A stretch of DNA of 63,727 nucleotides, counting the filler, from Kipferlia bialata (lineage: Eukaryota): NCBI GenBank assembly GCA_003568945.1. It is 7 parts of 5 records of this genome, joined end to end, with 100 filler letters (N's around TTAATTAATTAA, not from the genome) between each part and the next. Parts side by side here need not be neighbours in the genome. Positions count along the whole stretch, not along the records: positions 56,632 to 59,531 come from BDIP01000050.1; positions 59,632 to 61,981 come from BDIP01000065.1; 5 more parts are not named here. One strand, given 5' to 3'. Both the position numbers and the translations under genes were made by a program. The notes under the pieces were generated by a model, which saw only the letters and a program-made list of their open reading frames with translations, was not told the DNA's origin and searched no databases. Shown here piece by piece: positions 52 to 63,678 of the stretch (positions are counted from its first letter, which is position 1; each line of letters starts with the position of its first letter).

Positions 52-54
<3 letters not shown>

Positions 55-33485: not shown

Positions 33486-33526
<41 letters not shown>

Positions 33527-36445: not shown

Positions 36446-36476
<31 letters not shown>

Positions 36477-37232: not shown

Positions 37233-38090
37233 CTGGGGTGAGTCAATCATATATACCACTTAGAGAGGGGAGCCTATGGTGAGGAGATACACATCTAACT
37301 AAGGGCACTAGGGAGACAGAGAGAGAGAGAGAGATGACACTGGACAGCAGGGAGGGGAGCCTGGGGTAAGTATTAAGCATATATAATAATAACTAATGTA
37401 ACATTAACAAACTGGAGAGGGAGAGAGAGAGATCGGTCAGAGGACAATTGATATATATATATATATATATATATATCAATTGAGTGAGGGGGGGGGGAGA
37501 GGGAGAGAGAGAGAGATCAGACAGTGGAGAGAGGTGAGCCTATTGTCAGGGGGGGGGGGGGGGGGGGAAAAAAAAAAACAAANNNNNNNNNNNNNNNNNN
37601 NNNNNNNNNNNNNNNNNNNNNNNNNNTTAATTAATTAANNNNNNNNNNNNNNNNNNNNNNNNNNNNNNNNNNNNNNNNNNNNGGCACAGCGTCAGCAGAG
37701 GCAGGCTCGGCGGCAGATAGAGTGTGGCTGGTGGGGGGGGTGGGGGGGGGGGGGGGGGGGTCTCAATATCATAGCCTGAGTATTGATATCACTATTCTAC
37801 TCAATTGTGTCCTGCCAGTGTTAGTGTCTGTCTCTGTATCATACAGAGTGAGATGACACTGAGTACACGGATCACCCTCTTGCCCTCCCATTCTCTCTCT
37901 CTCTCACTCCCAGGTGTGTCTGAGGCCACTGTTGCTATTGTTACTATTGTTCTTAAGTACACAAGTATATACAATTAATTCATTGAGTCTTCTCACGCCA
38001 GGTGTGTCATTGGCTACATGTGCTGTTGTAGCTCTTATTATTTACGTTGTGTATATACTGGTAGTATACTATATAGTGTCTCACCCCCAG

Positions 38091-40078
38091 GTGTGTCCGA
38101 GGCCACTGTCGTTGTTGTATGCCAGAGGCTGATGCAGACAATGCAGGTAGACAGACACACAAATATATTCTAGTGTATGAGTACATCATATATATGAGTC
38201 CACCAGGCACTAGGGGGGGGGGGGGGAGCTCATATTTCCGGTTCTCACCTATTGAGGTTCGATATCTCTATATCGTTGTATATTCTACCACTTTCCCCTC
38301 TCACCCCAGGAGCAGGCTGCCCAGACTGTCAAGCTGTATAATAATATGTATTATAGTATATGTTTTATACACATATATACTAGTGTATGAGTACATCATA
38401 TATCTCACCCCAGGAGCAGGCTGCCCAGACTGAGACTGTCAAGACATTCTCAGCACTGTTCTCAACACTTGCAGACCAGGTAAATGTGTTATTTGTTCTT
38501 ACTATTTGAATGCTTGAGTATTCCTCATTTCACTTGGCTAGTATATTATGTGTTTATGTTTCTCAGTCTCACCCACTACAGTATCCCAATGTATTTGAAT
38601 ATTGTATCCTACTATATAGCCTCACCCTCAGTTCGATGCCCCCGGTGACAGACACAACACACCCCTGGAGATGGTGGCATTTGTGTGTCTAGGTAAGGGA
38701 TGAGTGCTCAAGCGTATACTTCCACCCCTTGAGAGGAAATTCTACATGTATGATTATATGTTTATGTATTCATATGTATATTCATATACATTAGTAAAGA
38801 TTCAACACACCACTGGAGATGGTGGCATTTGTGTGTCTAGGTAAGAGAATATGTGTACCTCTTGGTACTAGGAGGATACCAATTTGAATACATTTTGTAT
38901 GTGTGTATTTCTCTTACACACCCCTGGAGATGGTGGCATTTGTGTGTCTAGGTAGGAGAATATACATATTTGTGTGTGTCTAAGAAGGAGGATACCAATT
39001 ATATATACATATATGTCGTGTTGTAGCCTCTAAGTCTTAGTAGTTCAACACGGAAACATGCTTCTAACCATGGGTAGGTATAATATCTTTCAACTTATTT
39101 TTCTCATCCATAGGCATTGTGCCCCAGCTGCCATCGGTATCAATATATGTATATAGATTAATATATATATATATTTATCTTTTCTATTAGTCCAACACGG
39201 ACACATGCTCACCCCTAGGCATTGTGCCCCGGTACTATTTCTTTCACATTATATACTCATCCATAGGCATTGTGCCCCAGCTGCCATCGGTGGCATCAAA
39301 CGTCAGAGAGGTAAGAGTATATTGTGGTAGAGTTCGATAATGATTCAATGGAAGGTTGCTTTAGCTATATAATGTTAAATATGTCCCCACCATATGCCAT
39401 GATGGTTGCTCTACATACATTGCTGAATGTTCTGTTCCAGTCACATCTCTCTCTCTCTATATCTATGCATCTGTATCTGAACTCAGGCTATGATGGCTGT
39501 CCTCCACACCCTCCTCAATGGCCTGTTCCAGTCACCCTCTAGAGAGACTAGGGAGGGAGAGAGAGAGGGGGAGGGAGAGGGAGAGACACAGGCCATCACC
39601 CTCCACGCAGACTCGAGAGAAGTACTGACTGCATGCATGCCAGGTATATTTACCTATACATTGTATATATAGTAAAAATAGTATACATAGTATAAACTGA
39701 TAATAAGTAAATAGTATATATAGTATTCATTTAGTATATATGCAGACTCGAGAGAAGTACTGACTGCATGCATGCCAGGTATGAATGCATTAATATTTAA
39801 TTGCAGTGCATGTTTAATATATTAATATGCATGTAGATATATGTACTCGAGAGAGGTTCTTACAGCTTGCATGCCAGGTATGAATGACTAGTAGAGAGAG
39901 TGTGTGTAAATCGTAACTACATATGTCTGTGTGTGTGTGAAGTGATTCATATGTGAAGTGCTGTCAGCGTGCTAGGTAAACTGTATGTATCTCATCTCTC
40001 ATTAGCAAGACCTGTTATTGGATCTCTCCGTCTTTCTCTTTAGCTAGACTCTTACTGTCAGGTCTAGTTGCTGCCCTT

Positions 40079-40120
<42 letters not shown>

Positions 40121-40157
40121 AGCTAGACTCTTACTGTCAGGTCTAGTTGCTGCCCGT

Positions 40158-40197
<40 letters not shown>

Positions 40198-43100
40198 AGC
40201 TACACTCTTATCGTCAGGTCTAGTTGCTGCCCTTCTCTCCATATCCGATGGCGAGAGTGAGGGCAAGGAGTACAGTGCTAGGTATGCATGAGTTGTTATA
40301 TAACATAAATTATAGTATATTTTTCATTTCATCGACCCCACGAGATCCCTGCGGACCAAGCTCATGCCTTTGCATAGCATTTGTATATTTCCCGTATATA
40401 TATATCCCCTTTCCCTAACACACTAGGTCCATGCTGACCAGGCTCATGGCCGCATGACTATACTCCGAGTATATATTATTATATATTCATACATACATAT
40501 ATATATCAACACTAACCCACTAGGTCCATGCTGACCAAGCTCATGGCTGCATGACTATTCTTTATTAATATACTAAGGGTATACATATATATTCATATAT
40601 ATATATATATAGTACTAACCCACTAGGTCCATGCTGACCAAGCTCATGGCTGCATGACTATTCAAAATTTACTATACATAGGGTATATGTATATACTCTG
40701 TATTCTGAACTATATATATCAACACTAACCCAGGTCCATGCTGACCAAGCTCATGGTTACATGACTATTCCTTATCACTATACTAAGCGTATACATATAT
40801 ACTCTATGCGTATACATATATACTCTATGGTCTTTATCAATCAAATAATACTAACCCCTTAGGTCCATGCTGACCAAGCTCATGGCCGCATCCCCATCGG
40901 CTTTCTTTGCATCAGTCTTCAAGGGTAAGTGTAGTGTATATATATTATTGTAGTAATTGTAGTAGTCAATATTTTTCTTATGCGTGTCGATGGTTTCCTA
41001 TATCGGCATTCTTTGCATCAGTCTTCAAGGGTATGAAGATGGGTTACAGTACATCGATATTGTCACTTATTGCGTACGGGTGAATCTAAGATATACTCTA
41101 GCTGACGGGTTGTCTGCATGGATACGTCTCACCCTATCTGAGTATAAGTATTTTTACATACATTTACCTATCCCATCCCACCCCAGGTCTCAACAGCCCC
41201 ACCGGCAGGGTCTCTGCTGCAAAGACCATTGTGGAGCAGGTGGGTGGGATACCTTATTATACAAGTCTTCTTTCGAAGCTACTACATCTCATATCCCCAT
41301 ATTGCCCCCCCCCCCCCCCCCCCCCTCCCCCCCCCCCCCCCCTCCCCCCCNNNNNNNNNNNNNNNNNNNNNNNNNNNNNNNNNNNNNNNNNNNNNNNNNN
41401 NNNNNNNNNNNNNNNNNNNNNNNNNNNNNNNNNNNNNNNNNNNNNNNNNNNNNNNNNNNNNNNNNNNNNNNNNNNNNNNNNNNNNNNNNNNNNNNNNNNN
41501 NNNNNNNNNNNNNNNNNNNNNNNNNNNNNNTTAGTGAATCATATATAGGGCAAGGGGAATACGCCCCCCCCCTCCCCCCCTCCTAAACGGTTCACACTCT
41601 TCCTCTTATGCACCAACTCCTCCATATTATCCCCCTCATTGTATGTACCCCTCTCTCCTCTTCTGACCCTGTTACTCTGCTTGTTTATATGTGTCTACCC
41701 TTGACCCTAGGCGGAAGAAGCCGTCTCTCTTCCTGCAAAGGAGACAGAAGGAGAGGGAGAGAGCAGCTGAGATGGCTGAGATGAGGAAGGTATGTTATGT
41801 TGTATGTATGCTCACTATTGTGAAAACTATTGTATACTGAATATATTTTTGTATTTACATTCAGCTGTTATATAGTAATAAATATATTCACCCATAGGTC
41901 ATTGCCGCAGACATGCCAAGTGAGAGAAACCTACCTGTTGGAGAGCCAACCATAGAGGAGATGGTCAGGAAGGCACAGGTATATTGGTATATACATATAC
42001 ATTCTTCTCTCAATGTAGTAATGTATAGAAGATATAATCAGAAAGGCACAGGTACAGACCGTGTTCGATCTATTTGTGTTCTACAGAACGCTTATAACTG
42101 GATATACATTTGTATTAGTTTGTGTTTGTATGTACTGTCTTGTGACATCAACCATGTCTCACCCCCTAGGTCCTAGAGGCCCAGAAGAAGAAGGAAGAGG
42201 ACTTGGCCAGGTACAGTATATACTCATATAAATATAACTATATGTATAAATATCATATTCGGCTATATGTAATTGCCCCGTATAGAATGTCAAGTATTGA
42301 GGGAGCTTCTCTCTCTTTCCCCCTTCTCTCGCTATCACTATGTTCCATCAAGGACCTTCCTCAATTTCTCTCTCCTTCTGTCTCTGTATATATGTTTCAA
42401 TTCTCTTACCCCTAGGTTTCGCGAGTCTGTCTAGGACCTACCTCTATTACTCTCTCCTTCTCTTTGGCGTATTATATATTCGTGCAATTACTCTTACCCT
42501 AGGTTCCGCGAGTCTGTCAAGGACCTAGTGGGCGATGCCTCATCCATTGAGCAGGGGTACCTGCCCCCTGCTGTTACTGCCCCTCCCCCTATCCCTAGTG
42601 TACCTAGTGGACCTACTGTGCCCAAGCCCCCTGTACAGGAGAGAGAGAGAGAGACTGATGCCCAGACATCCTCTGCTGATGCAGACTCCCTCCTCTTCTC
42701 TCTCTCTGGGTCCATCCTCCACCCAGACTCCCAGCAGGTATAGTGATACACGGCATATATATATTTATGCAGGTATGATACAGTTCAATATGGTATATAT
42801 ATAATGTATTAGAGTTCATAGTATATATGTCATTATTTCAGTACACCCATACTCCCAGCAGGTATGATATGTACCATATACTATATATGCTATGTATTAT
42901 TATTGTTAGAAGTACTTTCATAATAGTTACAGTACAAGATTATGTTTACACTATATTATGAATTACCTCACTCTTCTGATCATGCTCTTTCCCCAGGTTC
43001 TGGATGGCCTTGCTGTCTCTCTCCCCACCCTGTCCCGTCTGGTCCAGTCTGCATACACCCCACAGCGGACACAGGCTCTGTCACTGGCATCTGTGGTGAC

Positions 43101-46100
43101 CACAACAGCTAGGTATATACCTTTATGTATACATATATACTGTAACTGTATCTGTATTATACCCCAGAGGACACATGCTCTGTCACTGGCATCTGTGGTC
43201 ACATCCACTGCCAGGTAGAATATATGAATTACACATTATACATAATGTATAGTATTTAGTCCCTGATGCTGTCATTTACTGTAGAACAGGTGGCTGTTGT
43301 ATCAGTAGCAGTGATATTCTGAACAGTGTAATACATGCCATATATTGATTGTAGTGATCAGTAGTATATATATATGGATCCTTGCTGTAGTATATATATA
43401 TTGCTCCTTGCTTGGTCTTCATTCATACCAGGACCAGTGGATATGGCAGATGTTATGGACAAGTGTAACAGCGGCATTATTCATTTAGATACATAGCGTT
43501 TCACACTGCTTGCCAATACCATATTGACCCCAGGACCGGTGGCTATGGCAGCAGGAGCAGTGATGTCCTGGACAGTGTCACCACCAGTGTGCTCATACCC
43601 ACTGTGCAGAGCAGTGCGTCTGCCAGCACACAGGGCAGGATACACAACGCTAGGTATATATATATATGTGTAAATACTCTTAAGTGTAAGTGTTCTCTAG
43701 GGTTAGGTAGTGCATCTGCCGGTACTCAGGGCAGAATTCACAACGCTAGGTATGCATACATTCATATACTCTTAAGTGTATATGTTCTTAGGGTAGGGTA
43801 GTGCATCTGCCAGTACACAGGGCAGGATACATAACGCTAGGTATGGATTCATATATATACATAGGGCACAACACAGTCTATATATATACATACAATAGTA
43901 CATGAGTTAATAATATATCAACCATGTTCTTATTGTCAGGTTCCTCATTGGCGCCCTCCCCGACCCCGCTCTTCCCCTGCAGTGCCTGCTGCTCTCCCAG
44001 CTCTCTCTCTCTGCCCTTTCTTCTAAGGGTCCAGAAAAGAGGGTGCAGTACCCCACCCCAGTCCCCCCCTCCCACCCTGCACCCCTGTCACTCCTGCAGG
44101 CACTCCTCTGCAACCAGGTACAATGCATGTATATATATATATATATTCATTGCTTTATATATATATATACATGTCCCACACTTCACCCCTCTCCCTACTG
44201 TAGGCACTGCTCTGCAACCAGGTACTCTATGGATTCGTATACACATACTAATTCATACATATACATAACATATATACATAAATATCCCACCCGCCTCTCC
44301 TCATGAAGGTCCAGCAGGCCCCCATGCTGTCTCTCTCTCTCTCTTCTTCCTTGTAACACACTCTCTTCTCATTATTTAGGTCCAGCAGGCCCCCATGCTG
44401 TCTCTGTGCCAGGCCGAGCCAGAGCTCTATGCCAGGCTGAGTGCTGTGGCAGGCTCAATCGACACAGACACCGTCAAGGGTATGATGTGTATGAGTTAAT
44501 CACTTGTTCATGTGTCAACTACAGTGTAGTAGTGTCACGGCGACGGTCATTAGACCTATTATCTATGTATACCATTTACTATATGTATACCTTTCTTACC
44601 CTAGGCCCGACAGTGACCACACCCGGCACTGGGTGTAACTGTATTATACTATCTCCTAACATATACATGTATAAATGTATATATATATATATATATAATA
44701 CTCACTAACATTAGGCCCGGACAGTGACCACACCCGGCACTGGGTGGTGGAGGCAGTCAGAGACAGGCTGGACTCTCTGTCAGCATTCCTCTCAAGGTAT
44801 ATATACATTGATTTAATATATTAGTTATGGCATTCCTCTCAAGGTATATATATTGTAAAAATGTGTTGAGTATATTTCAATATACTCCCGCCGGCCCTCT
44901 TTTGCCCTCTAAGGATACCCTCTTTACTGCTTGCGTATTGTCTTGACCTTGATGTTTGCCTTGTTTACTGTATTGTATTATTTGTATTGTTCACTCATAC
45001 CCAGGTCTGTGCAGGCCATATATAACATATATGTATATAATATACATATATCTACCTATTCTCTCTCTACTAATACCCAGGTCTGTGCAGGCCAAATATG
45101 TCATATGTATGTATTATGTATTTTATGTATATATTTCTTATCCATACTTGTACATATTCTATTCTTATACCCAGGTCTGTGCAAAAGTATTGATCCTCCT
45201 ATACCGAGTACATAGTGATATGTAATATACATTCTAATAATCAGGTCTGTGCAGGCCAAGCAGGACAGACAGGCAGGGCCAGGGGACACTCAGACACTGC
45301 AGGTGAGTTCTAATACACTGATATATACTCTATCATTGAGTAAATCTGGTTCCGTAGTTATCGTTAATGTATTGACACCCAGATCTCCGAGTCCGTTGTG
45401 AGTGAGCTAGCCTGGCTCCTCCGGTCTGCCTCTCTCCTCCTGTCCCAGAGGGTGCCCACTCATGAGTCACTGGTGCTTACTGTCCTAGGCCTAGTGGGCA
45501 CACTGCTAGAGGTTGGTTCACTGTGTATGAAAATTAGTGGTGTTATTATTGTTTCTTCCAGATACTCTTCCCTGTTTCCATGTACCATACACTTACCCCA
45601 GGTCATCTCCGATGGGTCTGTGGGTGATGACACCCCAGCCGGTGCCTCCCTCTCTCTGTCTCTCTGCCGCGATGCTGCTCTGGCCCTCTCTGTCTGTAGG
45701 GGTGTAGTACCCACACTCTCCACAGTAGAGCAGGGGGAGAGAGACACACAGAGTGAGAGCAGCCTCCTTGTTGTCTCTCAGGGTGTCCTCCAGTCCTTGG
45801 TCTCTCTCTCCATTCAGCACATGGGGCGCTCTCTCTCCCTCCCCTCCCCTATTGTCCTGCAGACATGCTGCATGTCGGTTGGTGCACTCTACCCCCTGCT
45901 AGACCCTTCTGCCAGAGATTCTTTGGCAGCTGAGGCACTACCTACCCTGCTCAAGCACGTTAAGAGAGAGAGAGAGGAGGAGGATGGTGGAGAGAGACTT
46001 GCCCCTTGCATGGAGGCACTGTTACTATGTGCCACACTGTATAGGGACACTGTGACCTCTGATGCTCTGGATGCCATGCTCTATGTCTCACAGTGGGAGA

Positions 46101-48005
46101 GGGACCTCGCACTCACACTCTCGGGGGCACCGGCTGTGGCATCACCACACGCACACTACAAGGAGGTACCATATGTTGACGTGATCATATCCTCGTTTCT
46201 GTCCTCTCTATGCCAATATTTCTCTCTTTACTACATAATTGCATATATATATATATGTGTGTGTGTGTTCCTCTCACATTCAGGTCCCTAGCGCACTTGA
46301 GACCTCTGCCCTCCTCTCCCTTGTGAGGAGTCTCATGAACAGGGGGGCAGAGGGGGCAGAGCTGACAGACCTTGCTGCACTACCCCCTGTACTCCTTCAG
46401 CCCATACTGCTGGGCATGCCCATCCACCAGGCACTCTCCATGCCGGCACCACTCTCACTGTGCCCCATATTGGCACAGAGGTATGCATATTTATACCTAT
46501 GTACTATACTCTGTATCTGTATACTTTACCTATATATATATCCTCATACTGACCCATACTGGCACAGAGGTATACATGTATATGTATATATAGCCATATA
46601 ATGGGTCATATGAATCTCTCTCTCTACCTCTCTCTGTCCCACTATCAACACAATGGGTCTAGACCTAGTCAGACTCTATCTCGTCTCACTCTCAGGTACA
46701 TCGTTGAGAACGAGGCCACTTTGGTAGAGCAGGGTCTCCCCCTCACCCTCCTTCCCCTCATGCGCGACAGTCTCTCTCTCTCCCTCCCCCACGTAGCCGA
46801 GTCCTCCCACATCACTGTCCCCCCTATGTCTGGGAGGTACGCACCCCTAGTGGCTGCTGTGCCGCCTAGAGAGACTGGGGGTACACCCGAGGAGTGTGCA
46901 CAGAGCGATACAGTCACCCTGGGGCTCCTCTGTGTCGCTCTGATTGGCCTTCAGAGCAGTACCTCGCGGGTTTCAGTCTCTGCGCGTTCCTACGCGGTTG
47001 ACGCTCTTGCGCTTATCTTTGCTGTGGCCAACCAGGCTTTAGAGGACTCAGATACCCTCATTGTGACCTTTGAGAGGATAGCGAGTGCCACTGTGGATAG
47101 CATATCCAGCATCACTGTAGACCCCTCTGCCCCTTCCACTGGGTTCCCCTCTGTCACACTCTGCAACACCACATACACACCTGTGGGGTGCATACAGCTG
47201 CTGGGTGCCAGCATGAGGACCTGTGGCTGGTGTGTGCCTGACCACCTCTTGTCTTCATGTCTTTCTCTCCTGCTGGCATCACCTGTAGTCGATGTGAGGG
47301 CCGAGGCATGGTCTCTGTACCTGTCTGAGTGCATAGTGGTCAAGGGCCGGGATGCTCTGGCTGCCACAGCGGGACTGGAGGTGGAGAGAGAGTACAAGGT
47401 AAATATAGTATATATATGTGGGTTCTCTCCCTATATAACACATATGGTACAATAGTATGTAAAAGAGTGATAACAACAGGTCATCTCTGCCATTGTATCT
47501 GCCCTGGATGCCATGGTTAAGAGTGTATATATACCATTAATATATGATATATATACATCCCTTACCCTAGGTTATTAGTGCCATTGTATCTGCCCTGGAT
47601 GCGATGGTCTGCAATGGAAGGGCACCAGCACGCAGGATGCCGTTTGTGGTGGCAGCAGCCAGATACCTTCTTAGGTAGAATTGTATATGCAATTTATTAT
47701 ACTTCTCTTACTGATCTACTCCATGGTTATCCTACAGTGAGGTATTTGTATGATTATGTATATGTGAAATATAATAATCTATCCTGACCCATCAGGTGCA
47801 GCCAGGAACAGGGTGGCAAGGCCATTATCAGATATATTACTTGTATGTATATTATGGGTATATATACTAATATATATATTTGTATATCACATATACATAT
47901 ACTATTAACCCTAGGTGCAGTGAGGCCCAGGGTGGCATGGCCATTGTCATGAGGTGTGGGGGTGACATGGACCTGTACACAGCACTCGCAGCAAAGGAGC
48001 TCTAA
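38091..48005 (+). CDS. Large hypothetical alpha-helical (ARM/HEAT-like) protein, >25 exons, spans the N gap 41351-41530, 5' truncated
   Basis: Leu/Ala/Ser-rich helical exons (ORFs 45398-46291, 46601-47455) plus many short exons. Ends '...DMDLYTALAAKEL*' at TAA 48003-48005. Continuity across the N gap is assumed. Confidence 0.6.
41351..41530. other. Scaffold gap (180 N); second gap at 48910-49074 (165 N)
   Basis: N runs without linker, next to poly-C/poly-G tracts. Confidence 0.95.
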
Positions 48006-49080
48006 CCAGTAATTCCAATAGAGTCACGTATAGTCTGATTCATACACTGATGCTGTTCTCAGCATTATTTTTCGCAGCAAAGGAGCTGTAAAGGAGCTGT
48101 AAAGCTGCATCCTGCAGGTATGATACACGAAGATTCTCCCAATAGACCCTCACGCATTTACATGAGATAGATCGTTCCACTCCCCATATCAGAAAGTCAA
48201 TATGATTGCATCACTCAAATCAATACAGCTGATCATATTGGCGTTTTGATTGTCAAACGCCATATACGGTTGAGTCCAATGCCTAATCTCGCGCTGTCTC
48301 TTCCTTCATCTAGACCATCTAGTCTTGGTGTTTCAACAATAGATGCAGAAGAACCTTGGCACAGCGTGTCTGGCCACTGCGTGTCTGGCCGGTGCCACCA
48401 TTGTATACACCCTGCTGACGTCATTCATATTCAGGTGAATACATGTATATCCAAATACCCTCTCCTGTTCCCTGCATTGACATCCACCTGCCACTTCTCC
48501 CTTACAGCTAATTGTACATCATATATATATGATATCTATATCTATATGATATCATATATATGATATACATCATTGTGACTGTGTCTCCACATTCCTGACC
48601 CCCCCCTCCCCTTCCCTCCCTATTTAAGACATCACCTAGCCAAATGTCATTCTCTCTCCCTAATGACAGCTGGGAAGGCTACCTCCCCACCATCTCCGTT
48701 GCTGCCCTCTCCCCCAATGCCACGCACGTGTACTGCTGGGGCCTATCAACAAGGTATGCATACTCATGTACACCATATATCCCTTACAGAGTTCCCAATA
48801 ATGCCCCACATATACTGGTGGGGCCTGGTATCAGGTCTCTCTCTCTCTCTCTCTCTCTCCCCCCCCCCCTTCCCCCCACCTCTCTCTCCATACATTTCTC
48901 ACACGTACANNNNNNNNNNNNNNNNNNNNNNNNNNNNNNNNNNNNNNNNNNNNNNNNNNNNNNNNNNNNNNNNNNNNNNNNNNNNNNNNNNNNNNNNNNN
49001 NNNNNNNNNNNNNNNNNNNNNNNNNNNNNNNNNNNNNNNNNNNNNNNNNNNNNNNNNNNNNNNNNNNNNNNNNNCCCGCG

Positions 49081-49120
<40 letters not shown>

Positions 49121-49177
49121 ATACATGCGATATGGATGTGATAGAACGAAAACAGATGTATGTTCTACACCGCATAC

Positions 49178-52100
49178 CTAGCTGCCTGCACTGTGGCTCT
49201 GATAGCTGTCAGCTCCTCGGCATGGGCCTCTGCAAACACATGTACAACGTCAGTCACTGGTGGTTGGAAATGGGTCATTTGAACATTGGTATACACATAT
49301 ACACATCCCGTACCTGACTCTGCCATCTGCTGGTGGTTCTCGGCCAGCAGGGTGATTGTCTCCTGGGCATCCTGGGGGTGAGGGGTGGTGTCTCCAGATT
49401 CATACACATATCTATCTGTTTATCTATCTAGTCACAATGACACACACTGCACACTCACCCTGAGTCCGTTGAGTGCCACGTCTGTCACAACTCTGATGGA
49501 CTCAGCATGGGTGTTCATCTCCTGGGGGGAGGGGGGGAGGGCTAGGGAAGAGTGTACAGGCAAGTATCCTCAGAGTGAATGACATATATACATATACATA
49601 CCTTCTCCATCAGGGCGTATGTGTCCTTGAGTGCCTGCTGCAGTCTCTCCACCTCGTCTGTCAGCAGTCTCTCCCTCACAGTGCCCTGGGGTCAGAGAGA
49701 GAGAGAGAGAGACAGAGAGAGATAGAGAGAGAGATTAATGACCCACCTCATCGGCACTGGCCTTGGAGGCACCTGCCAGGGCAGCACACCTGGGGTGAGG
49801 CAAAGGGTATGTATGAGGTATGTAACGTACCACGCATACAGATATCATCACCCACACTATGCACCATGTACATGCTACCCCCACCTGCTGTCTGCGTCTG
49901 ACTGCACTGCACTGGCAGCAGAGTGCACAGCACGGGACAGGTCACGCACAGCGGCAACGGCCTTGGCCTGGCTGGTCAGACACACAATACTGTATACATA
50001 TGACTATCATGTACTTCCCCACCTGCATCTGCATGGCTGTCTTGTTCTGCATGACCACAGACTCAGTGACACCGTTGATGGTGTCAATGGCCTTGGACGA
50101 CATGGACCGGTTGCGGCCTGGGGGTGAGGGGAAGGGGGACGTGGAGGGAGATTAGTGCATATGTACCATATACCCACCTGTTGCGAGGCCTATCTCCTGA
50201 GCCAGCTGGGTGGTGACATCACTCACAATGCCCGCATTGACACTATCGCGCTGACGGCCTGGGGGTCAGTGCATATACTGAGTGACAATTGTATAGATAC
50301 ACTGATCTGCTGAAGGGTGGTGTGTATAGATATAATATATACTATTACTATCTCTGGATACCCACCCTGCTGCAGCTTGGAGTACAGAGTGGCAGTGTGT
50401 GTCTCCTGGGTGTGTAGCTGGCTGCTGAGTCCAACGGCCTGACCCCTGGGGTGAGAGGGACCGATGACAGAGAGTGAGAGGAGATAGTGTCTATCAACTG
50501 ACCTGAGCCTTGCGTTAACAGCCCTGTCCTCTGCAATCACAAGCTGGTCAATGTCTGGGGGGTTAGAGAGGGTTGCGAGGTTGTAAAATGAACAGAGTCA
50601 ATAGGGGTAGACTGCCGCACCTCTCTCCTGCCTCTCTGAGGCCAGTTCGTCTGTGAGGGTGGCTGCCTTCTGCTGCACAGCTGTCAGCTGGGACTGGCTG
50701 GGGTAAAGAGGGGGGGGGGGAGTTACAGATAGTGGAATCACTGTGCCAACTGAGACACTGTAGACTCTGTATGGTAGACACCCACATACCGCATGTTGAG
50801 CAGCGTCTGTGTCTCGTTGAATGTCTTGGTCAGCACCTCCAGCTCAGCCACAATCTCAGCGATGCGGGTGTCCCTCTAGGGTGAGAGAGAGGGGGGGAGG
50901 AAGAGGGGAGAAGAGGAAGCAGACATATATAGTACATGGTGAGGGACTCATCTCAATGAGGGTATATACGGGACTCACAACAATACACCTTCAACGTCAC
51001 TCACAGTAAATACCACTGTAGACCCAAATACTACTACACCACTCATATGCACTAGACCCCACCTCCTCTGCTGTTGTCTGCATCTCCTCATACTCTCCTG
51101 GGGCCAGGTATGTGCCGTTCTTCTCCCGCTGGGCACGGAGGTCCTTCCTGTGGTGTTAGGTATAAATACATACAGAGAGAGAGAGGTAGGGAGAAACGTG
51201 CCTGAGCCTCTCGAGCTGGAGCTCGTATGACTTGACGACTGTCCTGGACGACACCCTCTGGTTGACCTCGGGCTTGTTCTTGATGGACTTGGCACTGGGG
51301 TCAGAAACATACGTTACATATGACATGGTATATGATGCAGACAGAGATAACACATACTACAAACAGGTGTCAGTGTCATTGTATAGATGGGTATCGATTT
51401 GGACTGGGGTCAGGATGGACACAGAGATATACGCTAGAGGTATACACATACTACACACCTGTTCATGTAGTTGAGTGTGTTCATGGTCTCCTCCACACTG
51501 GACAGACAGGGAGACACGGTGGCAACAATGGTGGTCTGGGGGGTGAGTATATGGGGGATGATGGTGGGGGTGGGAGGAGGGGGGGGGGGGATAGATTCAG
51601 CACTCTGTAAGAAAAGCACGCCCACCTTTGTGCGTCCTCCCAGAGACTCCTGAAGGAGCCTGGTGAGCTTGGACTCACTGAGGGGTTAGACACACACAGA
51701 TACAAACAGATAGAGTATGTGAGAGAGACACCCTCGTACCGGTATGGGATGTGGACCCTTCTCTGCACCAGGGCTGTGATGACTCTGCCCAGTGTCAGCA
51801 GGGACTGGTTGATCTTGCCGGCCTCGGCTGCACGGCCCTTGACGGCACCGGACCTGGGGGGTGAGGGAAGGTATAGATACGCAGAGAAATAAATAGATCA
51901 CCTGTTGATAACATTCCATATATCCACAATGATAAGTATCCCCCACCTGTCAATGTTCTCTGAGCCAGCCAGATCGACTAGGTTGAGCTTGCCTGTCTTG
52001 ATGACGTCGTTGCCATCAATGTCAGTCTCCTGGGGGGTGAGGGGGAGTGTAAGGGGAATGGATAGGAAGGAATTGTCTGAAAGAATTACACAATCATTAT

Positions 52101-53384
52101 GACCGTCTATACCACAACCAGCTGTACCTTGACCATGGTTGTGATTGTGAAGATGCAGTGGCTTCTGGAGGAGTTGGTGTTCATGAGAGTGGAGGCTGGG
52201 GGTGAGAGATATGGATATGTAGAGACACCAATATGAAGGGACATATATATACACTCCCTCAGTACCTGTTGTCCTGTGGGCACTGCTCTTCTGCAGCAGA
52301 GACAGCACGTCATCACTGCACATCACAGGCACCTCCTGGGGGGTCAGACATATATATCTACGCGACACAGACAGTCACATCAATAGGCACCCATTGCATA
52401 TATATACACACCTGGAGGTTGTGTACTGTGATCTGCTTTCCCTTGTTGTACTTGTCCTCAAAGATGCGGAGGGGGAGGTCGGTGCCAGGCTCGGCAAGGA
52501 GATCGTGGAGGTCCTCATTGTAGACCTGGGGTTGGTAAGGTAAGGAGAGAGGGACTATTTCGATACACATTGATAGAGAGGATGGAGAGCCACACTAATA
52601 CACACTCCACCCACCTCGAGATGGGACACCTTCATCGTGTAGTCACACCCACTGTTCTCAAGGACATCAAAGATCTCCATGACAGCCCTGGGGGTGGGAT
52701 CACTGGTAGATGCAGCATATATCATAGAGAGGGGGGGTAGGGAAGAGAACAGAAAATATGGTATAACATACACACACATTGACACACCTTGGGATGACTC
52801 CGCTGGTCTCTGGCAGGGGTGACCCTGGGACGACGGAGGATAGAGAGCCTGGGGGCCCCTCCATGGTGAAGGTCTTGCCTGGGGTAAGTGGAAGAAGGGG
52901 TGAATAGTGAAGACAGAGAGATAATGAAAAGGTGAGTGCAGCAGAAGCGTACCTGTTCCTGTCTGACCGTATGCAAACACAGTGCAGTTGAACCCCTTGA
53001 GGAACTCCTGAACAGTGCTGGAGAGGACGTGCTTATAGAAGTGGGCCTGGTCTGGGGGTAAGGGGAATCCATGTATGTAGAATAATAATATACAGAAGAA
53101 CTACTTTACATGTATTCATGTTATGATAGAATATATGGGTCTAGTATCATATGTCAAGTGAGAGGGGGGGGGGGGTACGAGTGATGAGTAGGAATGAGAG
53201 GTACTGCAATAGGAACTGAAGTGTATAGACTAGGAAAGTATTGCACACCTCTTTGGCTGTGACACAATCATCACATCGTACAATACATACACTACACTAC
53301 ATGTGTAAACTCCTGTATCATATCTACCCACCTGTGGCAGGACCGAACACCTGGTCGAAGCTGAACTTACGGGTGCTGCCATCA
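49178..53384 (-). CDS. KIF11: Kinesin-5 (BimC/Eg5) motor and stalk, multi-exon, 3' truncated
   Basis: '[10 protein letters not shown]', '[22 protein letters not shown]', '[12 protein letters not shown]', '[12 protein letters not shown]', '[21 protein letters not shown]', '[20 protein letters not shown]', '[22 protein letters not shown]'. The kinesin-5 neck '[12 protein letters not shown]' and 'REKNGTY' are present. Confidence 0.93.
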
Positions 53385-53475
53385 CTGGGGGGTGAGAGGG
53401 GGAGGGAGGGGGGGGGGGGGGGGGGGGGATGGTATGTAGAGAGAGAGAGACAGGGATACATATATTAAGCCGCAC

Positions 53476-56469
53476 CTCTTCTCCTTCTCCTTCTCCTGTG
53501 TCAGCCTCTGCACCTGCTGGGACAGAGAGGCAGCACGAGCCGTGGCAGCATCACACCTGGGGTCAGAGGGGGATATACTGTATGTATATATATATGTATA
53601 TATATGCATGTGACACACCTCTGCTGCAGCAGGGCGTGCTCCTTGGCCTTGGAGGTGGCCTCTCTCTCTGCCACACGCACGGCATCGCGCAGGGTCTTCT
53701 TCTCAGCCTGGGGTGGGTCGGGGTACACCACATATAGTATATATAGCAGTGGGTAGTGCTGTACCTCAGCAGCAGCGAGGAGTCTCTTTGCCTCGTCCTG
53801 TGTGTCCTGGGCCTTGGCTGCCTTCTCGACCTGCCTCTGGGCCTTCTCCATCTGTCTCTTCAGGGCCTGGACCTGGGGGTTATGTAACATAAGAGAGAGA
53901 GAGAGAGGGTGTGTGTGTGTGTAAAAGAGCAGTGTATATACCGCACCTCCTTCCTGGCCTCACTGGCAGCTGCGGCATTGTCAGCTGAGGCAGTCTCCAG
54001 GGACTTGATCTGGGGGGTCAGAAACAAATACATACACACACAATAGCATAGAGGTGTATGTATGCCCCACCTTGCGTGTGGCTGCGGCCAGCTTCATCTG
54101 TGACTGTGTGTACGTAGCTGTGGCCTTCTTGACCTTGGCCTCCAGCTGCGAGGACTGGGGGTAAGGCGTTGAATGGGAACGTTTCACGCAAAGAGTGAAT
54201 GATCAGAGTATGCATATAGGGAGTCTCTCTAGCTCTACACATCCTCCCCACCTGCCTCTCTGCCTCCTGGGCCTTGTCCCTCAGCTCAGACAGGTGCAGG
54301 CGGGTGTCGTCGCCCTGGGGGTGAGAGGGAGATATAAGAGGGTGATTGATACAATACAGTATACCCACCTGCAGCTGCAGCTCCTCTGCCCTCTGTCTCT
54401 GGAGGTCAGCAGCCTTCTTGGCCTTCTCCAGGGCCATCTCGAGGTCCTGGGGTGAGAGGGAGGGGGTATGCTAATGACCATAGACCCTGAAGCCACTCCC
54501 TATATACATTTGTATACATAACATCTGTACCTGCACCCTAGCTGCGTCTGCCGCTATGCCGCCACTCCCGATCAGGGCCTCGTCTCTGACCTGCCTGGCA
54601 GCATCAAGCTCTCCCTGGGGGGTGAGGGGGAGGTATACTAACACAGAGAGAATGAAGGTGACAGTATGTATACTCATATATATATATATACCTGTGTCTG
54701 CTCGAGCTGTGACTCCAGCTCCATGATGGTCTGCTCCACCTCTGCAAAGGTGTGCTGCATCTCCTCAGCCTCAGTCTCCTGGGGGGGTCAGAGAGAGAGA
54801 GTATCCCATATATATATATGTGTGTCAGAGTGTGTAATAATCATACCTTGCCCTGGCACTCGTCCTGCAACTGGCACAGCTCTGCCCTGACCGTATCCAT
54901 CTCCTCACTCTGCTGCGCAATGTACGCCTGGAGCTCGGCATTCTCAGACCCAATCTCCTCAACCTGGGTCAGAAGAGTAAAGTATAACTACACATGCACC
55001 ATATATAGAGACTGTTAGTGTTGCTACCCACCTGGTCCTTGAGTGGCTGTAGCTCTGTCTGGAGTGCCTCCTCCAGCTGCTGCATGGTCTGCTCTGTCTC
55101 GGCCCTCTCCTCCATCACAGTCTCAAGCTCAGTCTCCAGCTCGGCTATCGTGGCCCTGTGGGTGAGGGGAAGGGGGGGGGGGAGGTTACAGATGGAGAGT
55201 GAAAAGAGTAATACTATATACATTTACAACACTCACTTAGCCTCCTCCATGGCCTCCGAGTCAAACCCGGCCTCGCCAGACTCAACAACAGCCTCTGGGG
55301 GTGAGAGGATGTCGATAGAGAGACAACTACAATGACACACAGCTACGTACCGAGCTCTGTGAGCTGTTGCCGTGTGCTCTCGAGCTCCTCGCACATGGAG
55401 GTGATCTCCATCTCAAGCTGCTCCCTCTCAAACACCATCTGGGGTGGGACAGGTCTCTCTCAGACTAGACAGAAACAGTGGAGATGTGACATTGAAGTTG
55501 GAATCTTCTGTATACGGCACTGTGCACGTGTGTGTGTACGAATACATACCTGTGCCCTCTCCTCCTCAAAGGCAGCCTTCTCAGCGGCATTGTCAACCTC
55601 CTCAAGCTCTGAATGTCAGAGGCAGAACTTAGAAGAACGTGAACAAATTTACATATGGGTGTGTATGTATACAACAGAGATATCCAGTATAGTAGAGCTG
55701 CCCCACCGAGGATGTGTGTCTCCAGCTCCCCGACTGTGGCACTCTGCTCCTCCACAGTCTCCTGCAGCTGGGCAATCTCCTCCTTCAGATCCTAGAGGGT
55801 GAGGGAGGTACACAATGTGACATACATACACATATATAGATATATACATATATCCACCCCTACCTTCTCCATCATTGTCCTCTCCTCCTTCATCCTCTCC
55901 ACCTGGCTGACCAGGGCGGCCAGCTCCACATCGGGTGCCTCCATCGTGTCGTCATAGGTCACAAGGCGGCCCTGGGGGTGAGGATACATGGCACATATAC
56001 ACATAAATGTATATGTATGAGACACACACGTACATCTGCCCCCAGGTACTCCTCGTCTGGTGTCTGTCCCGAGCGTGGTGTGCCACTGCCACTAGGCATA
56101 GAGGCCATGGAGCCAGAGGGGGACCTGGGGTTAGGGGGAGACCAATGCACAGGGGGTATATACAGGACACATTATTGTACATATGTACCTTGGGTTGATG
56201 GGCACCCCGGGCAGGTCTCCGTCCTCGTTGTCGCTGTCGGCTCCTCCCTCACCCACCTCACCTCCATCGGCTGGGGCAGCGTCCTTGTCCCCACCGGGGG
56301 CGGCACCTGGGGTGAGTGGATGTGCTACCCATATGAGAGCAACACCTACATAATACATATATTAACAGACATGCATACCTCCCTCCTCAGCAGCAGGCTT
56401 CTTCTTCTTCTTGCCCTTCTTGATGACGTCGGCTGGCTTCTCGGGGATGGCCACAGGGCAGATGGCATC
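53476..56469 (-). CDS. Long acidic coiled-coil protein region (~19 exons), in phase with the downstream kinesin-5 exons
   Basis: Heptad-rich exons ('ATIAELETELETVMEERAETEQTMQQLEEALQ', 'VQALKRQMEKAQRQVEKAAKAQ') with ~60-90 bp canonical introns. Confidence 0.8.
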
Positions 56470-56956
56470 CTAGGGTGAGAGGAGAGGCGGGGGGGGGGGG
56501 GGGGGGGGGGGGCAAGGGACCCACCCCGGGGNNNNNNNNNNNNNNNNNNNNNNNNNNNNNNNNNNNNNNNNNNNNTTAATTAATTAANNNNNNNNNNNNN
56601 NNNNNNNNNNNNNNNNNNNNNNNNNNNNNNNTGAAGAAAAGAAAATGGTGGGGTGTGGGGGGGGGGGGGGGGAGGGTGAAGTAACTCTTCTGAACTGGAG
56701 AGTCAGAACATACAAAGATTCTGCGCACAGTCAACACATGACATGAGTTACATCATGTATCTTACATGTATATCGATGTCATACAATCTACAATATGTAT
56801 TATATATGACCCACATATACATACTACGTATACCAAATGTATTCGGTTACACTATATGGGTGACAGGTAGCATCAAGGCTTGAGAAGTGTCAATGAGGGA
56901 GAATGGGTATTGAATCAAGAGAGAAGGAGAGAGGAAGGGGGGGGGGAGAGTGTTAC

Positions 56957-57954: not shown

Positions 57955-59453
57955 TTATATCCACACTCCAGCATTCAACCCCTTGTCTGGCTGCGAGCAT
58001 GGAATTACTAGGTCAGGATCGAATCTTAGCACACTTAGAGACAGAGTCCAACCAAAACCTCTGGTAGTTTCCATCAGCAGTTGCGATCCATGTCCCAGCT
58101 CCGCCTGAGCCAGTGCACGTAGAGGCCCTGAAGGGGCGCATCCACACACCTCCCACTCACCACTCACCGTGTCGAAGGTAGTCCACCTCTTAATCCCTCC
58201 CACACGCTGTGGCATTACCACTCTTTGATCAAGCACAGTTACCCTTCTGTATGTATCCATGCCGCAATCCCATATACCAGTACTGAAGCGCTCCAGTACC
58301 CCCGTCTCGTCACACGTGTACACACCCTCCAGACAGAAGAGATATGCTACATCTCTCACCACACGCACCACCTGTATCGTCAATAGGATTCCCTGGTTCG
58401 CTGATAGCGTGACCCACCCTTCCTCCTCCCTATCGGGGTCATATGTATACACATGAGTGCTCTCACTGCCGTACCGATTGACTGACCTGCACCCTAGCAG
58501 TCTACCACCTATAACAAAGGTATGCTTCAACCATGGGTGATTGGCCTTGGGGGAAGGGTAGCCAGGGGCGACGGGTGGAGCTGGAGGAGGCTTGACGCTT
58601 CTGACCTTCATGGTATCCAGGGACAGCTCAACGAGATTAGGCGCTGCCACATAAAACAGTCTGGTACCAATAGCATGCAATCCCTCCGGCATCGATGGGA
58701 CACAGAGCGAGAACCTTGACGCTATACCTTCCACAACACAGGTAGACCCTTCGCTACTAATGCGAAGAATAGCAGAGACACTGGGGCAATCAGGGTACAG
58801 ATCATATGATGACAAGAGCGCATGTTTAGCCTCTAGGTTGTTTGCAAAGACTAGACCGTGTCCTAAGGCCACTAGCCGTGTCGTTTGTCGAAGGCAGAGG
58901 CCAGCGGGTAGGGTGCACCTAAAGGTAAGAACAAGCAGAGGAAACAAACGTGGAAACTAGTATATATATTGCATATGTTATATATATCCTGTATAATGTG
59001 TTATCAGCACCTATTGTTGAGGGGGTGAGGTACAAATATCCAAAGAGGAAGAGTGGGTGGTCTGGCCAGTAATACTGAGGCCAGCGGGTAAGATAGAGAG
59101 ACAGAGAGAGAGAGAGAGAGAGAGGATAATACTGAGGCCACCGGGTAAGGAGCGCATTATAGTACACAGCATGGTGTCAGGTACACAGTATGGATGCAAG
59201 TATACTATCCATATACTAATGACAGCGGGGGGGGGGGAGGAAGCATCCTGAGGCATACACCATATCGGGTTATGTGGAGAGAACCGCCAAGGAGAAATGT
59301 ATGTAAATATGTAAATATGTAAATATTGATAATGATACCAGACTAGTAGTATGGGGAATTCGTAGGGGTGATATATCACACAGGGGACGCATAGTATATG
59401 GGTGCTTACCTTGTGATGTGGATATCTGAATCTGTCTGGCACACATCCATGTC
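57955..59453 (-). CDS. Kelch-like beta-propeller protein (5' truncated)
   Basis: Long terminal exon (from ~58918) with 'FVIGGRLL', 'YTYDPDREEEGWV' and 'TFDTVSGEW'. An upstream exon lies at ~59410-59453. Confidence 0.6.
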
Positions 59454-59509: not shown

Positions 59510-60113
59510 GGGGGGGAGGGGGAACGGGGAANNNNNNNNNNNNNNNNNNNNNNNNNNNNNNNNNNNNNNNNNNNNTTAATTAATTAANNNNNNNNNNNNN
59601 NNNNNNNNNNNNNNNNNNNNNNNNNNNNNNNCCCCCCCCCCCCCCCCCCCCCCTCCCTCTCCCCCCCCCCCCCCCCCTTCTCTCTTTCTGTGCTAGACTC
59701 TCTCTCTATATGTCGACTGTGAGTGGGAGAGAGCCTGGTACTCCCCCCTCCCACCTTTCTCTCTTCCGTCTCTATGTCTGTATGCTGACTAGGCCTACTG
59801 TCTCTGTCTATCTCCCCTTCTCTTCTTCTCTTCACCTCTATGCTCTTCTTTACACATCTCTCTCTCTCCCCATACTAATATGTGTGTGTATATACACGTA
59901 TGTATTGCTGCTGATCCTTCCGTGTACTTGTCCCAGTAACTGGGCTGTTCTGTGCGTATATTGTGTTCTCTCGTCTCATATATGGATAGTGAATATAGTG
60001 TATATACACGCCTTAGTTTCTCTATCTAACCATAGGTCAAAGGACCTGGGACGTGCATTACCATTATCTGTCTCTCTCTCCATCCCTCTGTCTCTCTCTC
60101 TATCTAACCATAG

Positions 60114-60512
60114 GTCCAAGGACCTGGGTGAGAAGAGGAAGGGAGGGGCAGCACAGAGGACAGGTATGGATACATATATGTATATATATGTATTAATATA
60201 TACTATATACTACATAGTGTATGTGTGTATGAGCGGAAGGGAGGGGCAGCACAGAGGACAGGTATATATACTAATATAGTGTATATTCTGTACTGCTATT
60301 GTTCATTTATGGTTCACATATGTGTACGTTATAAGTGATATAATATAAAGAGGAAGGGAGGGGCTGCACAGAGAACAGGTATGGATACTATGTAATATAA
60401 TATAGTGTATGTATACTCTATATGGTATACATGTGTGTGTATGGGGGGGAAGGGAAGGGCAGCACAGATAACAGGTTCTTATACTATGTAGTGTAATCGG
60501 ACTCTATGGTGA

Positions 60513-60553
<41 letters not shown>

Positions 60554-61117
60554 TGGAGGGAGGGGCAGCACAGAGAACAGGTATACAATATGTACTATCT
60601 AGTGAAATATTTGTACATGTTGTGGTATAGTAGTGGCTGATTCATGTGTGTGGATACTGACTGTGTTTGTCTGATAGTCTCTCTCTCTCTCCCTCTACAC
60701 CCTTATTCCCAGTGAGTGGTGCTGAGCAGGCCAAGACCACCAAGTCATACAGCTGCAGGATATGCGGCAGGTCTCTGCCTGGGAAGGCCAGGTACTATAC
60801 ACTCTACTCTATATATATGCCCGACGATTCTAAGTACTGTACCATCCGAGGTGTATGGACATATAGTATAGTATAGTATGTATATAATATGTATATATGG
60901 GATATTATAGTGTATGACTGAGGGATACTAATCCTGATGCAGAATATGCGGCAGGTCTCTGCCTGGGAAGGCCAGGTACTAGAGATACTCTATATACTCT
61001 ACATTTACATACTACTCTATATGTATATGAGTATAGCTGCAGGATATGCGGCAGGTCTCTGCCTGGGAAGGCTAGGTACTACAGGAACTCTACCCTATAT
61101 ATATGTATATATGAATT

Positions 61118-61166
<49 letters not shown>

Positions 61167-61523
61167 TCTATATATATACTCTGTGTATATGCCTGGCAAG
61201 GCTAGGTACCCTACCATCCGTATTGTATCTGTATGGACAAATATAGTATATATTCTATAGTTGCAGTATATGCGGCAGGTCTCTGCCTGGCAAGGCTAGG
61301 TATATATTTTATATATATTATGTGGGATGGGATGGGATATTAAGTATTGTATAATGCATTCCATGTGCCTACAGTGGTACTCTTCCCTCTCTCTCTCTCT
61401 CTCTCTCCCTCTACACCCCTTAATACCAGGTACTGTCAGCAGTGTGCCTACAGTGGGGGCGTGTGTAACATGTGTGGTAGGGCCATCAGTGGAGATGCCA
61501 TGAAGCTGAGGAGGAATAGATAG
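60114..61523 (+). CDS. CRIPT: CRIPT (cysteine-rich PDZ-binding protein); exons 60114-60163, 60713-60791, 61430-61523; 5' exon not identified
   Basis: The spliced product 'SKDLGEKRKGGAAQRT/VSGAEQAKTTKSYSCRICGRSLPGKA/RYCQQCAYSGGVCNMCGRAI..*' matches the CRIPT CxxC..YCQxCAYxxGxCxMCG pattern. Confidence 0.88.
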
Positions 61524-61943
61524 ATGAAGTAATTGTTCTTTAGAAAAGTCTCCTACTCTGACGAAAGGGTGTGGTCCAGTAGATCTAGGATAGAATCAAA
61601 AATTCTCGGTGTCAGTTGGGTTGAGTGCTTCTCTTTACAGTTGGAGGACGATAGATGGCCTCAGCTGTGTGGTCAGTACAAACCCGTGCATGTCTATATG
61701 CTACGAACCCTTGGGAGCTTATCGGCCATCACTCCGGGTGGTGACCTCACAGCACTGCCTCTCCAACAGCCTAGAGGGACCCCATAGGTAGGGTAGGGGG
61801 TGTATAGGGGATAGATACATGTATAGACAGGGTATAGTGTGTTGGAGGACTGAGGGTGACTGACATAGGTAGTATCCGGTCTGTGTATGGGGAGGTGTCA
61901 CTTAGCGACGGACTTTACGATATCATGATAGTATATGCCTATC

Positions 61944-61978
<35 letters not shown>

Positions 61979-62081
61979 CCCNNNNNNNNNNNNNNNNNNN
62001 NNNNNNNNNNNNNNNNNNNNNNNNNTTAATTAATTAANNNNNNNNNNNNNNNNNNNNNNNNNNNNNNNNNNNNNNNNNNNN

Positions 62082-62197: not shown

Positions 62198-63678
62198 CTG
62201 GCGTACTCCTCAGCAGGAAGTATATGACGTATCCCGGTGTGGAATAGTGGGACCCGTACATAAAGGCCTCAGCTGGATCAAACTCCTTGAGGTTCTGGTA
62301 CCGAATGAGGTTCTCCTAACGGTGAGAGGAGCAATACGTCCAAGTCAGTACTCATATATCACTGGCTTTCAAGATATGTAAATAACTGTGACCTACCTCC
62401 AGCCTGTTCTGATCCAGGGCAGCCACAGGCAGAGAGAGGTCCCTGGGGGTTAGAGATATATAATGTTGAAAACACAATGTATCTTGCGTTGGTACCTGTA
62501 CATGTTTCTGTCCTCGAGGTCAATAGTGTCACATGTGTAGTCCCTGAGGACCCATGGGTAGACAGGGTACTGACTAAGGCACTGGTGGCTCCTGTTGCCG
62601 ATGGTGTTGAGGCCTGATATGTATGTGAAGTTGTCTATCTGGCCATCCACCCAGGCAGCCTGCATAGCGGGTAGTCCCTTCTCACACTCTACACACACAG
62701 ACAGAGACCCCAGGTGTGACAGGAGAGAGTCCCTCATGTGCTGTGAGTGGAATCCCTCCCCTCCCTGTGTGTCTGTGAAGACTAGGAAGAGAGAGTCGAT
62801 GATGGGGCCGGGACAGGGAGAGCGCCCTGCTGCGGCATCAGGCCCAGAGGGACAGAGGGAGAAGGGGGAGGGATTGTCCTCTGTGGGGGCATCGGCCAGA
62901 GAGAGGAGTGGGGATATGCCGTCAAGGAATGACGCAAAGGGTGACTCCTGCTGCTTGGAGGCCCCTCCCCTTCCTTCCACTATCGACTGGACAGAGGGGA
63001 AGGAGGGCTTCACAGGACCTAGGGAGAGAGAGAGAGAGGAGTCGGGGAAGGGGTCAGAGAGGTGGCCGGCCCTTCTGGGGGCAGCTGAGAGGAACAGCTC
63101 GACAGCCTCGTCCTGCAGCACAAAGAGTCTCTTCATTGCGGCAGATATGTTGTCGATGGGGAAGGAGAAACAGGGCACAGAGGTCACCTAGGGGTGAGGG
63201 AGGATCGTCATAGTTAGAGTACATACTACATTACTAGTAGAGTGAATACCACATCCCCCTACCTTGGCTGGGAATGTGACCTGTAGGTAAAGTGCCTCAG
63301 CAGTGAGTGCCAGTATACAGGGGAGTCTGACCAGGGGTGCACATAGAGTGACAGGGGCCTCAAACAGAACAGGGGAGAGAGACTCAACGTGGGAGGGGTC
63401 GAACGACGCGTCCTGTATCCGTCTGTTGATATAGCTGTCGATGCTGCCGGAGGGGCCCTGGCTCTCGAAGAACATGTGGGTGATCTTGGCAAATACCTGT
63501 GTGTCAGAATCAATGTCACACCAAGACAGCACCACTAATCTACCATATGATACCTCAGCAATGTCTGTGAATGAGGGCCTGAACTCAAAGACAAGGTCGT
63601 CTCCGTCGTTGTCGTGCTTGGCTGTCTTCTTCTGGGCTGGGGTGTCCTCCCTGCCCCCTTGCCGGGTCAGAGTGTGCT
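62198..63678 (-). CDS. PH-BEACH domain protein (neurobeachin/FAN-like), internal fragment
   Basis: 'WVDGQIDNFTYISGLNTIGNRSHQCLSQYPVYPWVLRDY..IDLEDRNMYR/DLSLPVAAL' and 'FMYGSHYSTPGYVIYFLLR'. A PH-like segment lies upstream. Confidence 0.93.

Follow-up and report, generated by a model that had tools for sequence, protein, structure and literature searches.

The window, meaning the whole stretch of Kipferlia bialata DNA that was analysed (63,727 nt), consists of seven contigs with spacers between them. One of these contigs, 2350 nt long and lying at 59632–61981, carries three exons and two introns of a CRIPT gene, all on the plus strand.

60114–60163 (+): first CRIPT exon found on the contig (X2 record 12, open frame)
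60164–60712 (+): intron of 549 nt, GT–AG, with four donor copies
60713–60791 (+): CRIPT exon with the first CxxC (CRIC) (spliced contig, open frame)
60792–61429 (+): intron of 638 nt, GT–AG, with four donor copies and one copy of the next exon
61430–61523 (+): last CRIPT exon, including the stop (Pfam PF10235, X2 record 12)

The last exon passes the Pfam cut-off for the Cript family (PF10235) with 30.4 bits against a gathering threshold of 25.5 (E = 6.6e-7). An earlier note on this DNA held that homology fixes the reading frame; this is correct for the last exon, whereas the frame of exons 60114–60163 and 60713–60791 derives from the spliced contig and from frame continuity. The gene is family-like in its last exon and in the presence of the CxxC pairs. 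It is unlike the family in that its first, N-terminal exon was not found on the contig at 59632–61981, and in that exon 60713–60791 by itself has no Pfam match. A protein search with the extended last exon returned nothing at E ≤ 0.001.

Exon joining at CRIPT is seen in X2, a contig set that is RNA by our guess; no record labels it as RNA. Record 12 of X2 spans all three CRIPT exons without the introns, with the outermost splice sites joined: positions 60112–60160 correspond to record positions 63–111, 60710–60787 to 112–189, and 61426–61532 to 190–296. The joints are read from these block coordinates, among the 15 of 22 matches listed, and the offsets between blocks and exon borders result from the CAG and CCAG common to both ends. 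Among the matches listed, the first 62 nt of the record have no placement on the CRIPT contig. At its other end, the spliced contig departs from the genome 9 nt past the CRIPT stop (61524–61532), at an AGTAA-like word that we take to be possibly a Giardia-like poly(A) signal, with a very short 3′ UTR. X2 depth is absent in most CRIPT intron bins; contigs drop rare forms, hence this absence is not counted as evidence. RNA support concerns CRIPT, and the exon models of the other genes described below rest on sequence.

Both CRIPT introns contain partial copies of the exon–intron junctions that flank them, and one acceptor copy lies upstream of exon 60114–60163.

60019–60050 (+): acceptor copy, comprising branch point/AG and 15 nt of exon start; TCC>TCA, silent
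60232–60265 (+; exon part 60232–60261): donor copy 1 of exon 60114–60163; AGG>CGG, silent; X1 contig 60138–60264 spans exon to copy
60348–60382 (+; exon part 60348–60378): donor copy 2 of exon 60114–60163; GCA>GCT and AGG>AGA, both silent
60448–60476 (+; exon part 60448–60474): donor copy 3 of exon 60114–60163; GGG>AGG and AGG>ATA, both missense
60557–60584 (+; exon part 60557–60580): donor copy 4 of exon 60114–60163; AGG>AGA, silent
60938–60981 (+; exon part 60938–60975): donor copy 1 of exon 60713–60791; AGG>AGA, silent
61032–61081 (+; exon part 61032–61075): donor copy 2 of exon 60713–60791; TAC>TAT and GCC>GCT, silent
61190–61209 (+; exon part 61190–61205): short donor copy 3 of exon 60713–60791; GGG>GGC and GCC>GCT, silent
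61256–61302 (+; exon part 61256–61299): donor copy 4 of exon 60713–60791; four silent changes and AGG>AGT, missense
61364–61377 (+): 14-nt copy of last-exon sequence 61443–61456

All but the last of these had been described in the earlier note, and each was recovered: the four echoes of either exon end with their silent changes, the missense copy near 60449, the single AGG>AGT missense in the second intron and the acceptor echo near 60022. Eight of the nine CRIPT copies listed there reach a score that was met by 0.38% of 2628 controls pairing exons with foreign introns. Copy 61190–61205 scores 11 (control rate about 1%), falls below the threshold and is excluded from all counts. The proposed inflation of both introns to about 550–640 bp agrees with the measured 549 and 638 nt, lengthened by copies, and the suggested baseline of about 80 bp is roughly right, the four copy-free curated introns being 64–152 nt long.

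The arrays were checked against X1, a set of DNA contigs. These cross most intron-to-copy junctions at a depth of 302–387, even with the flanks, and with no other letters; single contigs cross the CRIPT junctions at 60138–60264, 60236–60504, 60768–60973, 60952–61072 and 61192–61376. The CRIPT copies and their intron arrays are thus confirmed as real. That haplotypes or strains were strung together during assembly is highly improbable. The differences look allele-like, two TA tracts (60505–60564 and 61096–61191) are skipped in the X1 placement, and X1 may be the window's own source run, so that it checks the assembly and not a second genome. Against this, single contigs pass from intron into copy at the depth of the flanks, and allelic bubbles would join an intron end to the downstream exon, not to the upstream exon end. 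X1, a single sample, shows no variant at CRIPT and, among its contigs, no second CRIPT copy at ≥90% identity.

Similar copies occur well beyond CRIPT. Because an automatic gene model mistook copies for micro-exons, 41 exons were instead curated by hand in six gene stretches that were selected for repeat richness. All of these exons join as open frames; in gene B, the frame or acceptor was picked by eye in two places. Besides CRIPT, the curated stretches are as follows.

30505–31622 (+): gene stretch A, 3 curated exons, 1 copy
32236–37360 (−): gene B, 13 curated exons, 22 copies
37914–41239 (+): gene stretch C, 8 curated exons, 17 copies
41711–47975 (+): gene stretches D and E, 14 curated exons, 17 copies

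Across the six stretches, 66 copies occupy 43 of 76 junction sides, and 31 of the 35 introns contain at least one. Intron length follows 133 nt plus 103 nt per copy (r = 0.93, 35 introns). Three stretches of the window (19.9 kb, 73 targets) have 3.4–4.3 local repeats per kb; in the remaining five (43 kb, 3 targets) the figure is 0–0.34. The CRIPT contig had been presented as an independent replicate of the phenomenon; the pattern does recur on other contigs, but all belong to one genome and provide no independent lineage.

Copies and AT-rich introns are confined to 30470–48100 and 59632–61981, as opposed to 1–25171 and 48101–56531, and the switch from copy-rich to copy-poor sequence near 48100 falls within one contig (3.7 versus 0 repeats per kb). 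A lone junction copy lies at 29548–29678 in a minus-strand gene, where the intron measures 159 nt compared with 55–112 nt for the others in the automatic model. A GCN1/EF3-like HEAT-repeat gene occupies 1–6987 (−) on a nearly copy-free contig (PF24987 and PF24984 for 1969–3552), and 9601–11826 is a long open frame for a pentapeptide-repeat protein (PF00805). At 15454–20169 (−) an unbroken open frame of 1571 codons has no Pfam match and is unusual for an intron-rich genome. A kinesin motor gene (51898–53100; PF00225) and a BEACH-domain gene (62450–63187, −; PF02138) are without local repeats. A 23-nt direct repeat with 57-nt spacing adjoins a GA tract at 59070–59149, and a protein search with the open frame at 57958–58917 gave nothing at E ≤ 0.001. 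A metagenome scan returned one locus of 30% identity (L001), which is bacterial-looking and unrelated.

Each copy unit combines an exon part (median 28 nt, maximum 53) with an intron part (median 73 nt); unit sizes range over 47–224 nt, and the median copy spacing is 102 nt. GT is kept in 33 of 34 donor copies and AG in 26 of 32 acceptor copies, counts that the anchoring rule favours slightly. The curated junctions themselves are mostly AG|G at both ends. All 35 curated donors are G|GT, with A at +3 in 34, and the 41 curated acceptors carry a brief pyrimidine-rich signal in which an A precedes the AG by about 8 nt. The available text of PMC6679479 describes a fused branch point and 3′ splice site for diplomonads, which these acceptors resemble. 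The genome as a whole is reported to have 49.4% GC and 124,912 introns in the portion of PMC5874029 available to us.

Identity in the exon part is about 0.9, a value inflated on the exon side by detection through that part, and similarity is near background from donor position +5 and upstream of acceptor position −11. Intron parts lie above background in only 12 of 59 copies. A mirror search, however, found repeated intron parts at 17 of 37 junction sides, compared with 14% for controls, which indicates that whole units were duplicated and that their intron parts have decayed much faster. Clear whole-unit similarity persists in a few arrays (e.g. 40023–40242, 91% matches). In seven of the nine copies whose exon part is identical over at least 23 nt, the intron parts are no closer than foreign introns, and intron-part similarity shows no correlation with exon-part divergence (rho 0.14, p = 0.29). 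Copies within one array often have a common start position and therefore descend from one founder. Copy 39742 matches its exon exactly, yet has its intron start in common with copy 39845, which carries five silent changes; this pattern may reflect gene conversion limited to the exon part. Dinucleotide runs lie beside 20 of 66 copy junctions against a 19% background, a weak hint. Among individual copies, the pair 38310–38333 and 38414–38443 differs by an in-frame 6-nt repeat, present in the exon and missing from the acceptor copy. In the acceptor copy at 33458–33549 (−), AT stands in place of the AG, and splicing at the inner CCAG that remains would shift the frame.

Several other origins were considered and rejected. 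Recursive splicing does not fit, as 34 of 35 donors have A at +3 and exon starts after acceptors do not rebuild it. Cassette or mutually exclusive exon copies are countered by the 53-nt maximum of the exon part and by a YAG near the start in only 11 of 33 donor copies. Introners or transposon-derived introns are countered by the foreign-intron match rate of 0.38% among the 2628 controls, and by the match of each copy to its own neighbouring exon. New introns of the Rogers type are not what is seen, since the copies sit inside introns with intron sequence on their flanks.

The differences between copies and exons are mostly silent, as the earlier note had described at CRIPT. With each change counted once per array, the curated set contains 91 silent and 53 non-silent unique differences, distributed over codon positions 1, 2 and 3 as 34, 18 and 92. 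The resulting pN/pS is 0.17–0.23 (0.16–0.32 by bootstrap over 43 arrays); by stretch it is 0.09 for CRIPT, 0.27 for B, 0.19 for C, 0.26 for D and 0.43 for E. A neutral copy beside an exon that accepts only silent changes is expected to show a silent share of 0.39–0.47 and a pN/pS of about 0.5. The observed share of about 0.63 departs from this model with p = 7e-9 to 6e-5 (transition bias 1–8). Neutral copies passed through the same detector gave silent shares of 0.41–0.45, with a highest replicate of 0.55, versus 0.64 observed; thus, the detector does not create the silent bias. The excess persists in separate counts of donors, acceptors, nearest copies, trimmed ends, the non-CRIPT genes and CRIPT by itself, where 9 of 12 unique differences are silent (p = 0.011–0.040 versus the neutral-copy model). 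Missense changes are only marginally conservative (p = 0.05–0.09, not significant). The pattern is statistically solid and regional, and simple decay does not explain why intronic copies with no apparent use should diverge in a protein-aware manner.

The arrays also have internal order. The farther a copy lies from the working site, the more it diverges (rho 0.41, p = 0.011, from 15 arrays with 38 copies). At 36494–36855 (−), three donor copies have one start point: the nearest equals the exon, the second differs by two silent changes and the third adds two missense changes. Nested ladders of silent states of this kind, found here and in the second CRIPT intron, with divergence rising with distance, are what clonal self-duplication would give, in which each copy either undergoes neutral decay or is renewed from its own exon, with exon evolution plus mutation bias accounting for the excess of silent differences. 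The eight copies of rank 3 or higher are also consistent with the neutral model, showing no significant departure (p = 0.18–0.42). This origin is nevertheless unlikely. It predicts a pN/pS near 0.5, above the observed interval, and toy simulations of clonal conversion averaged 0.46–0.75 over four settings. Base-specific rates taken from the missense changes predict about 42 silent differences, whereas 98 are seen. Clonal conversion that exposes copy missense changes to selection also erases silent differences, so the ratio stays near 0.5. Already disfavoured on these grounds, a clonal origin would require a substitution rate at silent exon sites some four times that of the corresponding sites in the intronic copies.

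Some copies carry four to six silent changes and no missense, including an AGT versus TCT serine. The acceptor copy that pairs 47480–47517 with 47571–47608 is one instance, with four silent codon changes, no missense and a TCT versus AGT serine that amounts to a two-base silent jump. Such copies could be relics of one hybridisation or polyploid episode, in which template switches between two diverged parental genomes produced short duplications; this would give the same ortholog-like profile and could account for the confinement of copies to some regions. A single episode is very unlikely, however, because arrays with up to three or four graded silent states and common start points suggest repeated events, and X1 shows no second CRIPT copy at the identity searched.

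Alternatively, the copies may be under direct protein-level selection, sometimes entering mRNA as in-frame micro-exons or swapped exon ends, so that missense changes would be removed while silent ones accumulate by drift. Toy simulations of direct selection also reached low pN/pS values, 0.19, 0.19, 0.29 and 0.30 in four settings. The AT lean of the silent differences (GC in exon and AT in copy in 45 cases, the reverse in 22) fits mutation inside the copies, the splice dinucleotides are largely kept, and among the 33 donor copies seven have an in-frame YAG close to their start, three of them within the second CRIPT intron (33, 39 and 39 nt). Several observations weigh against such selection, which we consider a rather doubtful explanation. 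The CRIPT spliced contig uses the outermost sites, and the YAG sites, judged by eye, are without the branch-point-adjacent acceptor pattern of this genome. An internal AG|GT that would permit an exact swap is found in only 4–5 of 66 copies, and the 61–62 copies without one still have 76–81 silent changes versus 51 non-silent codons. Three copies contain stops and one (44605) a frameshift, and the variance-to-mean ratio of missense changes is 1.48, compared with 0.98–1.10 in the direct-selection runs. A stronger proposal has a low probability: the introns would house a library of alternative alleles in the form of functional spare exon ends, maintained by protein-level selection and exchanged into gene or mRNA at a consequential rate, across most introns of whole regions. 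The use of copies as alternative donors or alleles in mRNA, raised in the earlier note, finds no counterpart in the sole spliced contig, in a data type that drops rare isoforms.

The favoured proposal is instead that junctions are duplicated harmlessly and that gene conversion keeps rewriting the exon part of each copy during recombination between divergent alleles, a scheme that assumes allelic diversity and that could equally prove right or wrong. Duplication takes in the splice signal together with some 28 nt of the exon end or start on one side and some 73 nt of intron on the other. CRIPT splices at its outermost sites, as the other genes presumably do, so that a copy would cost little. 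The AT-rich intron part would then drift fast while the exon part is refreshed from the working exon, as it would be the only stretch still similar enough for pairing. Exon and copy would often come from different alleles, both of them mostly working exons in the past; most of their differences would therefore be silent, overlaid by the little neutral decay accumulated after the exon part was last refreshed. A pN/pS below the clonal values would require that selection on the protein had acted in both lineages.

Toy simulations of allelic exchange gave pN/pS values of 0.20, 0.23, 0.33, 0.34, 0.37 and 0.46 in six settings, of which three (0.33–0.37) and the one at 0.46 exceed the observed interval. 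The run at 0.23 approached the data in silent differences (1.37 versus 1.58 observed), missense differences (0.87 versus 0.71) and share of identical copies (0.24 versus 0.21), and matched their spread. All simulation parameters were hand-picked, and the allelic runs needed about 10–12% silent diversity. Against allelic exchange, exchangeable alleles predict near symmetry, whereas the silent differences lean 45 to 22; X1 is without a variant at CRIPT; and stretch E alone stands at 0.43. Dead copies in a strictly clonal lineage would hardly produce a silent excess, and if allelic exchange is the true origin, one genome records past exchange between divergent alleles.

The layout of these arrays is already known from amphioxus mirages and human F7 intron 7; for the divergence pattern, no earlier report was found. 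The literature within reach, which mostly excludes subscription journals, yielded no report of protist mirages or of a silent excess in such copies, and the string 'duplicat' is absent from the main text of the Kipferlia genome paper as available to us. Rogers' model, as summarised in the accessible text of PMC3087553, derives intron gain from tandem duplication of AG|GT. It is similar in invoking local duplication with splice signals, at junctions that are mostly AG|G here, but there the duplicated exon sequence turns into a new intron. In the present genome, a junction already in place has been copied into the intron beside it, and the mRNA, as far as the CRIPT spliced contig shows, stays as it was. 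PMC2812944, in the part available, lists tandem repeats at the borders of human exons. In the 37-bp VNTR of human F7 intron 7, the first unit likewise spans the exon–intron border, and identical downstream donors are silent because the most upstream site is chosen (PMC1557585, as far as available). That case involves a single locus, short units of regular form and no acceptors, in contrast with the many genes, irregular units of about 100 nt, and donors plus acceptors found here.

The closest likeness is to the mirages of amphioxus, which the available parts of PMC3087553 and PMC3902484 describe for Adh3, the globins BflGb6 and BflGb9, troponin C and PGBD5. Those are tandem copies over exon–intron borders at both 5′ and 3′ ends, many keeping AG or GT, with units of 10–160 bp that overlap the size range here, and normal splicing is unaffected. 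The Kipferlia copies correspondingly lie head to tail across the border beside the working junction, and duplicate both 5′ and 3′ borders. In the one CRIPT spliced contig, a type of record in which rare isoforms are not visible, they are skipped. Amphioxus mirages are reported gene by gene, with BflGb6 units 81–100% identical, whereas here 31 of 35 curated introns contain copies and the intron parts have mostly decayed; the codon-aware silent excess of the exon parts has no mention in the available portions of the amphioxus reports. The copies described here make one path of intron growth countable, and they form a natural set of cases in which to ask why splicing favours the outermost site. 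Earlier, mirages had been known from scattered animal genes; in whole regions of this protist genome, most of the intron length is due to them.
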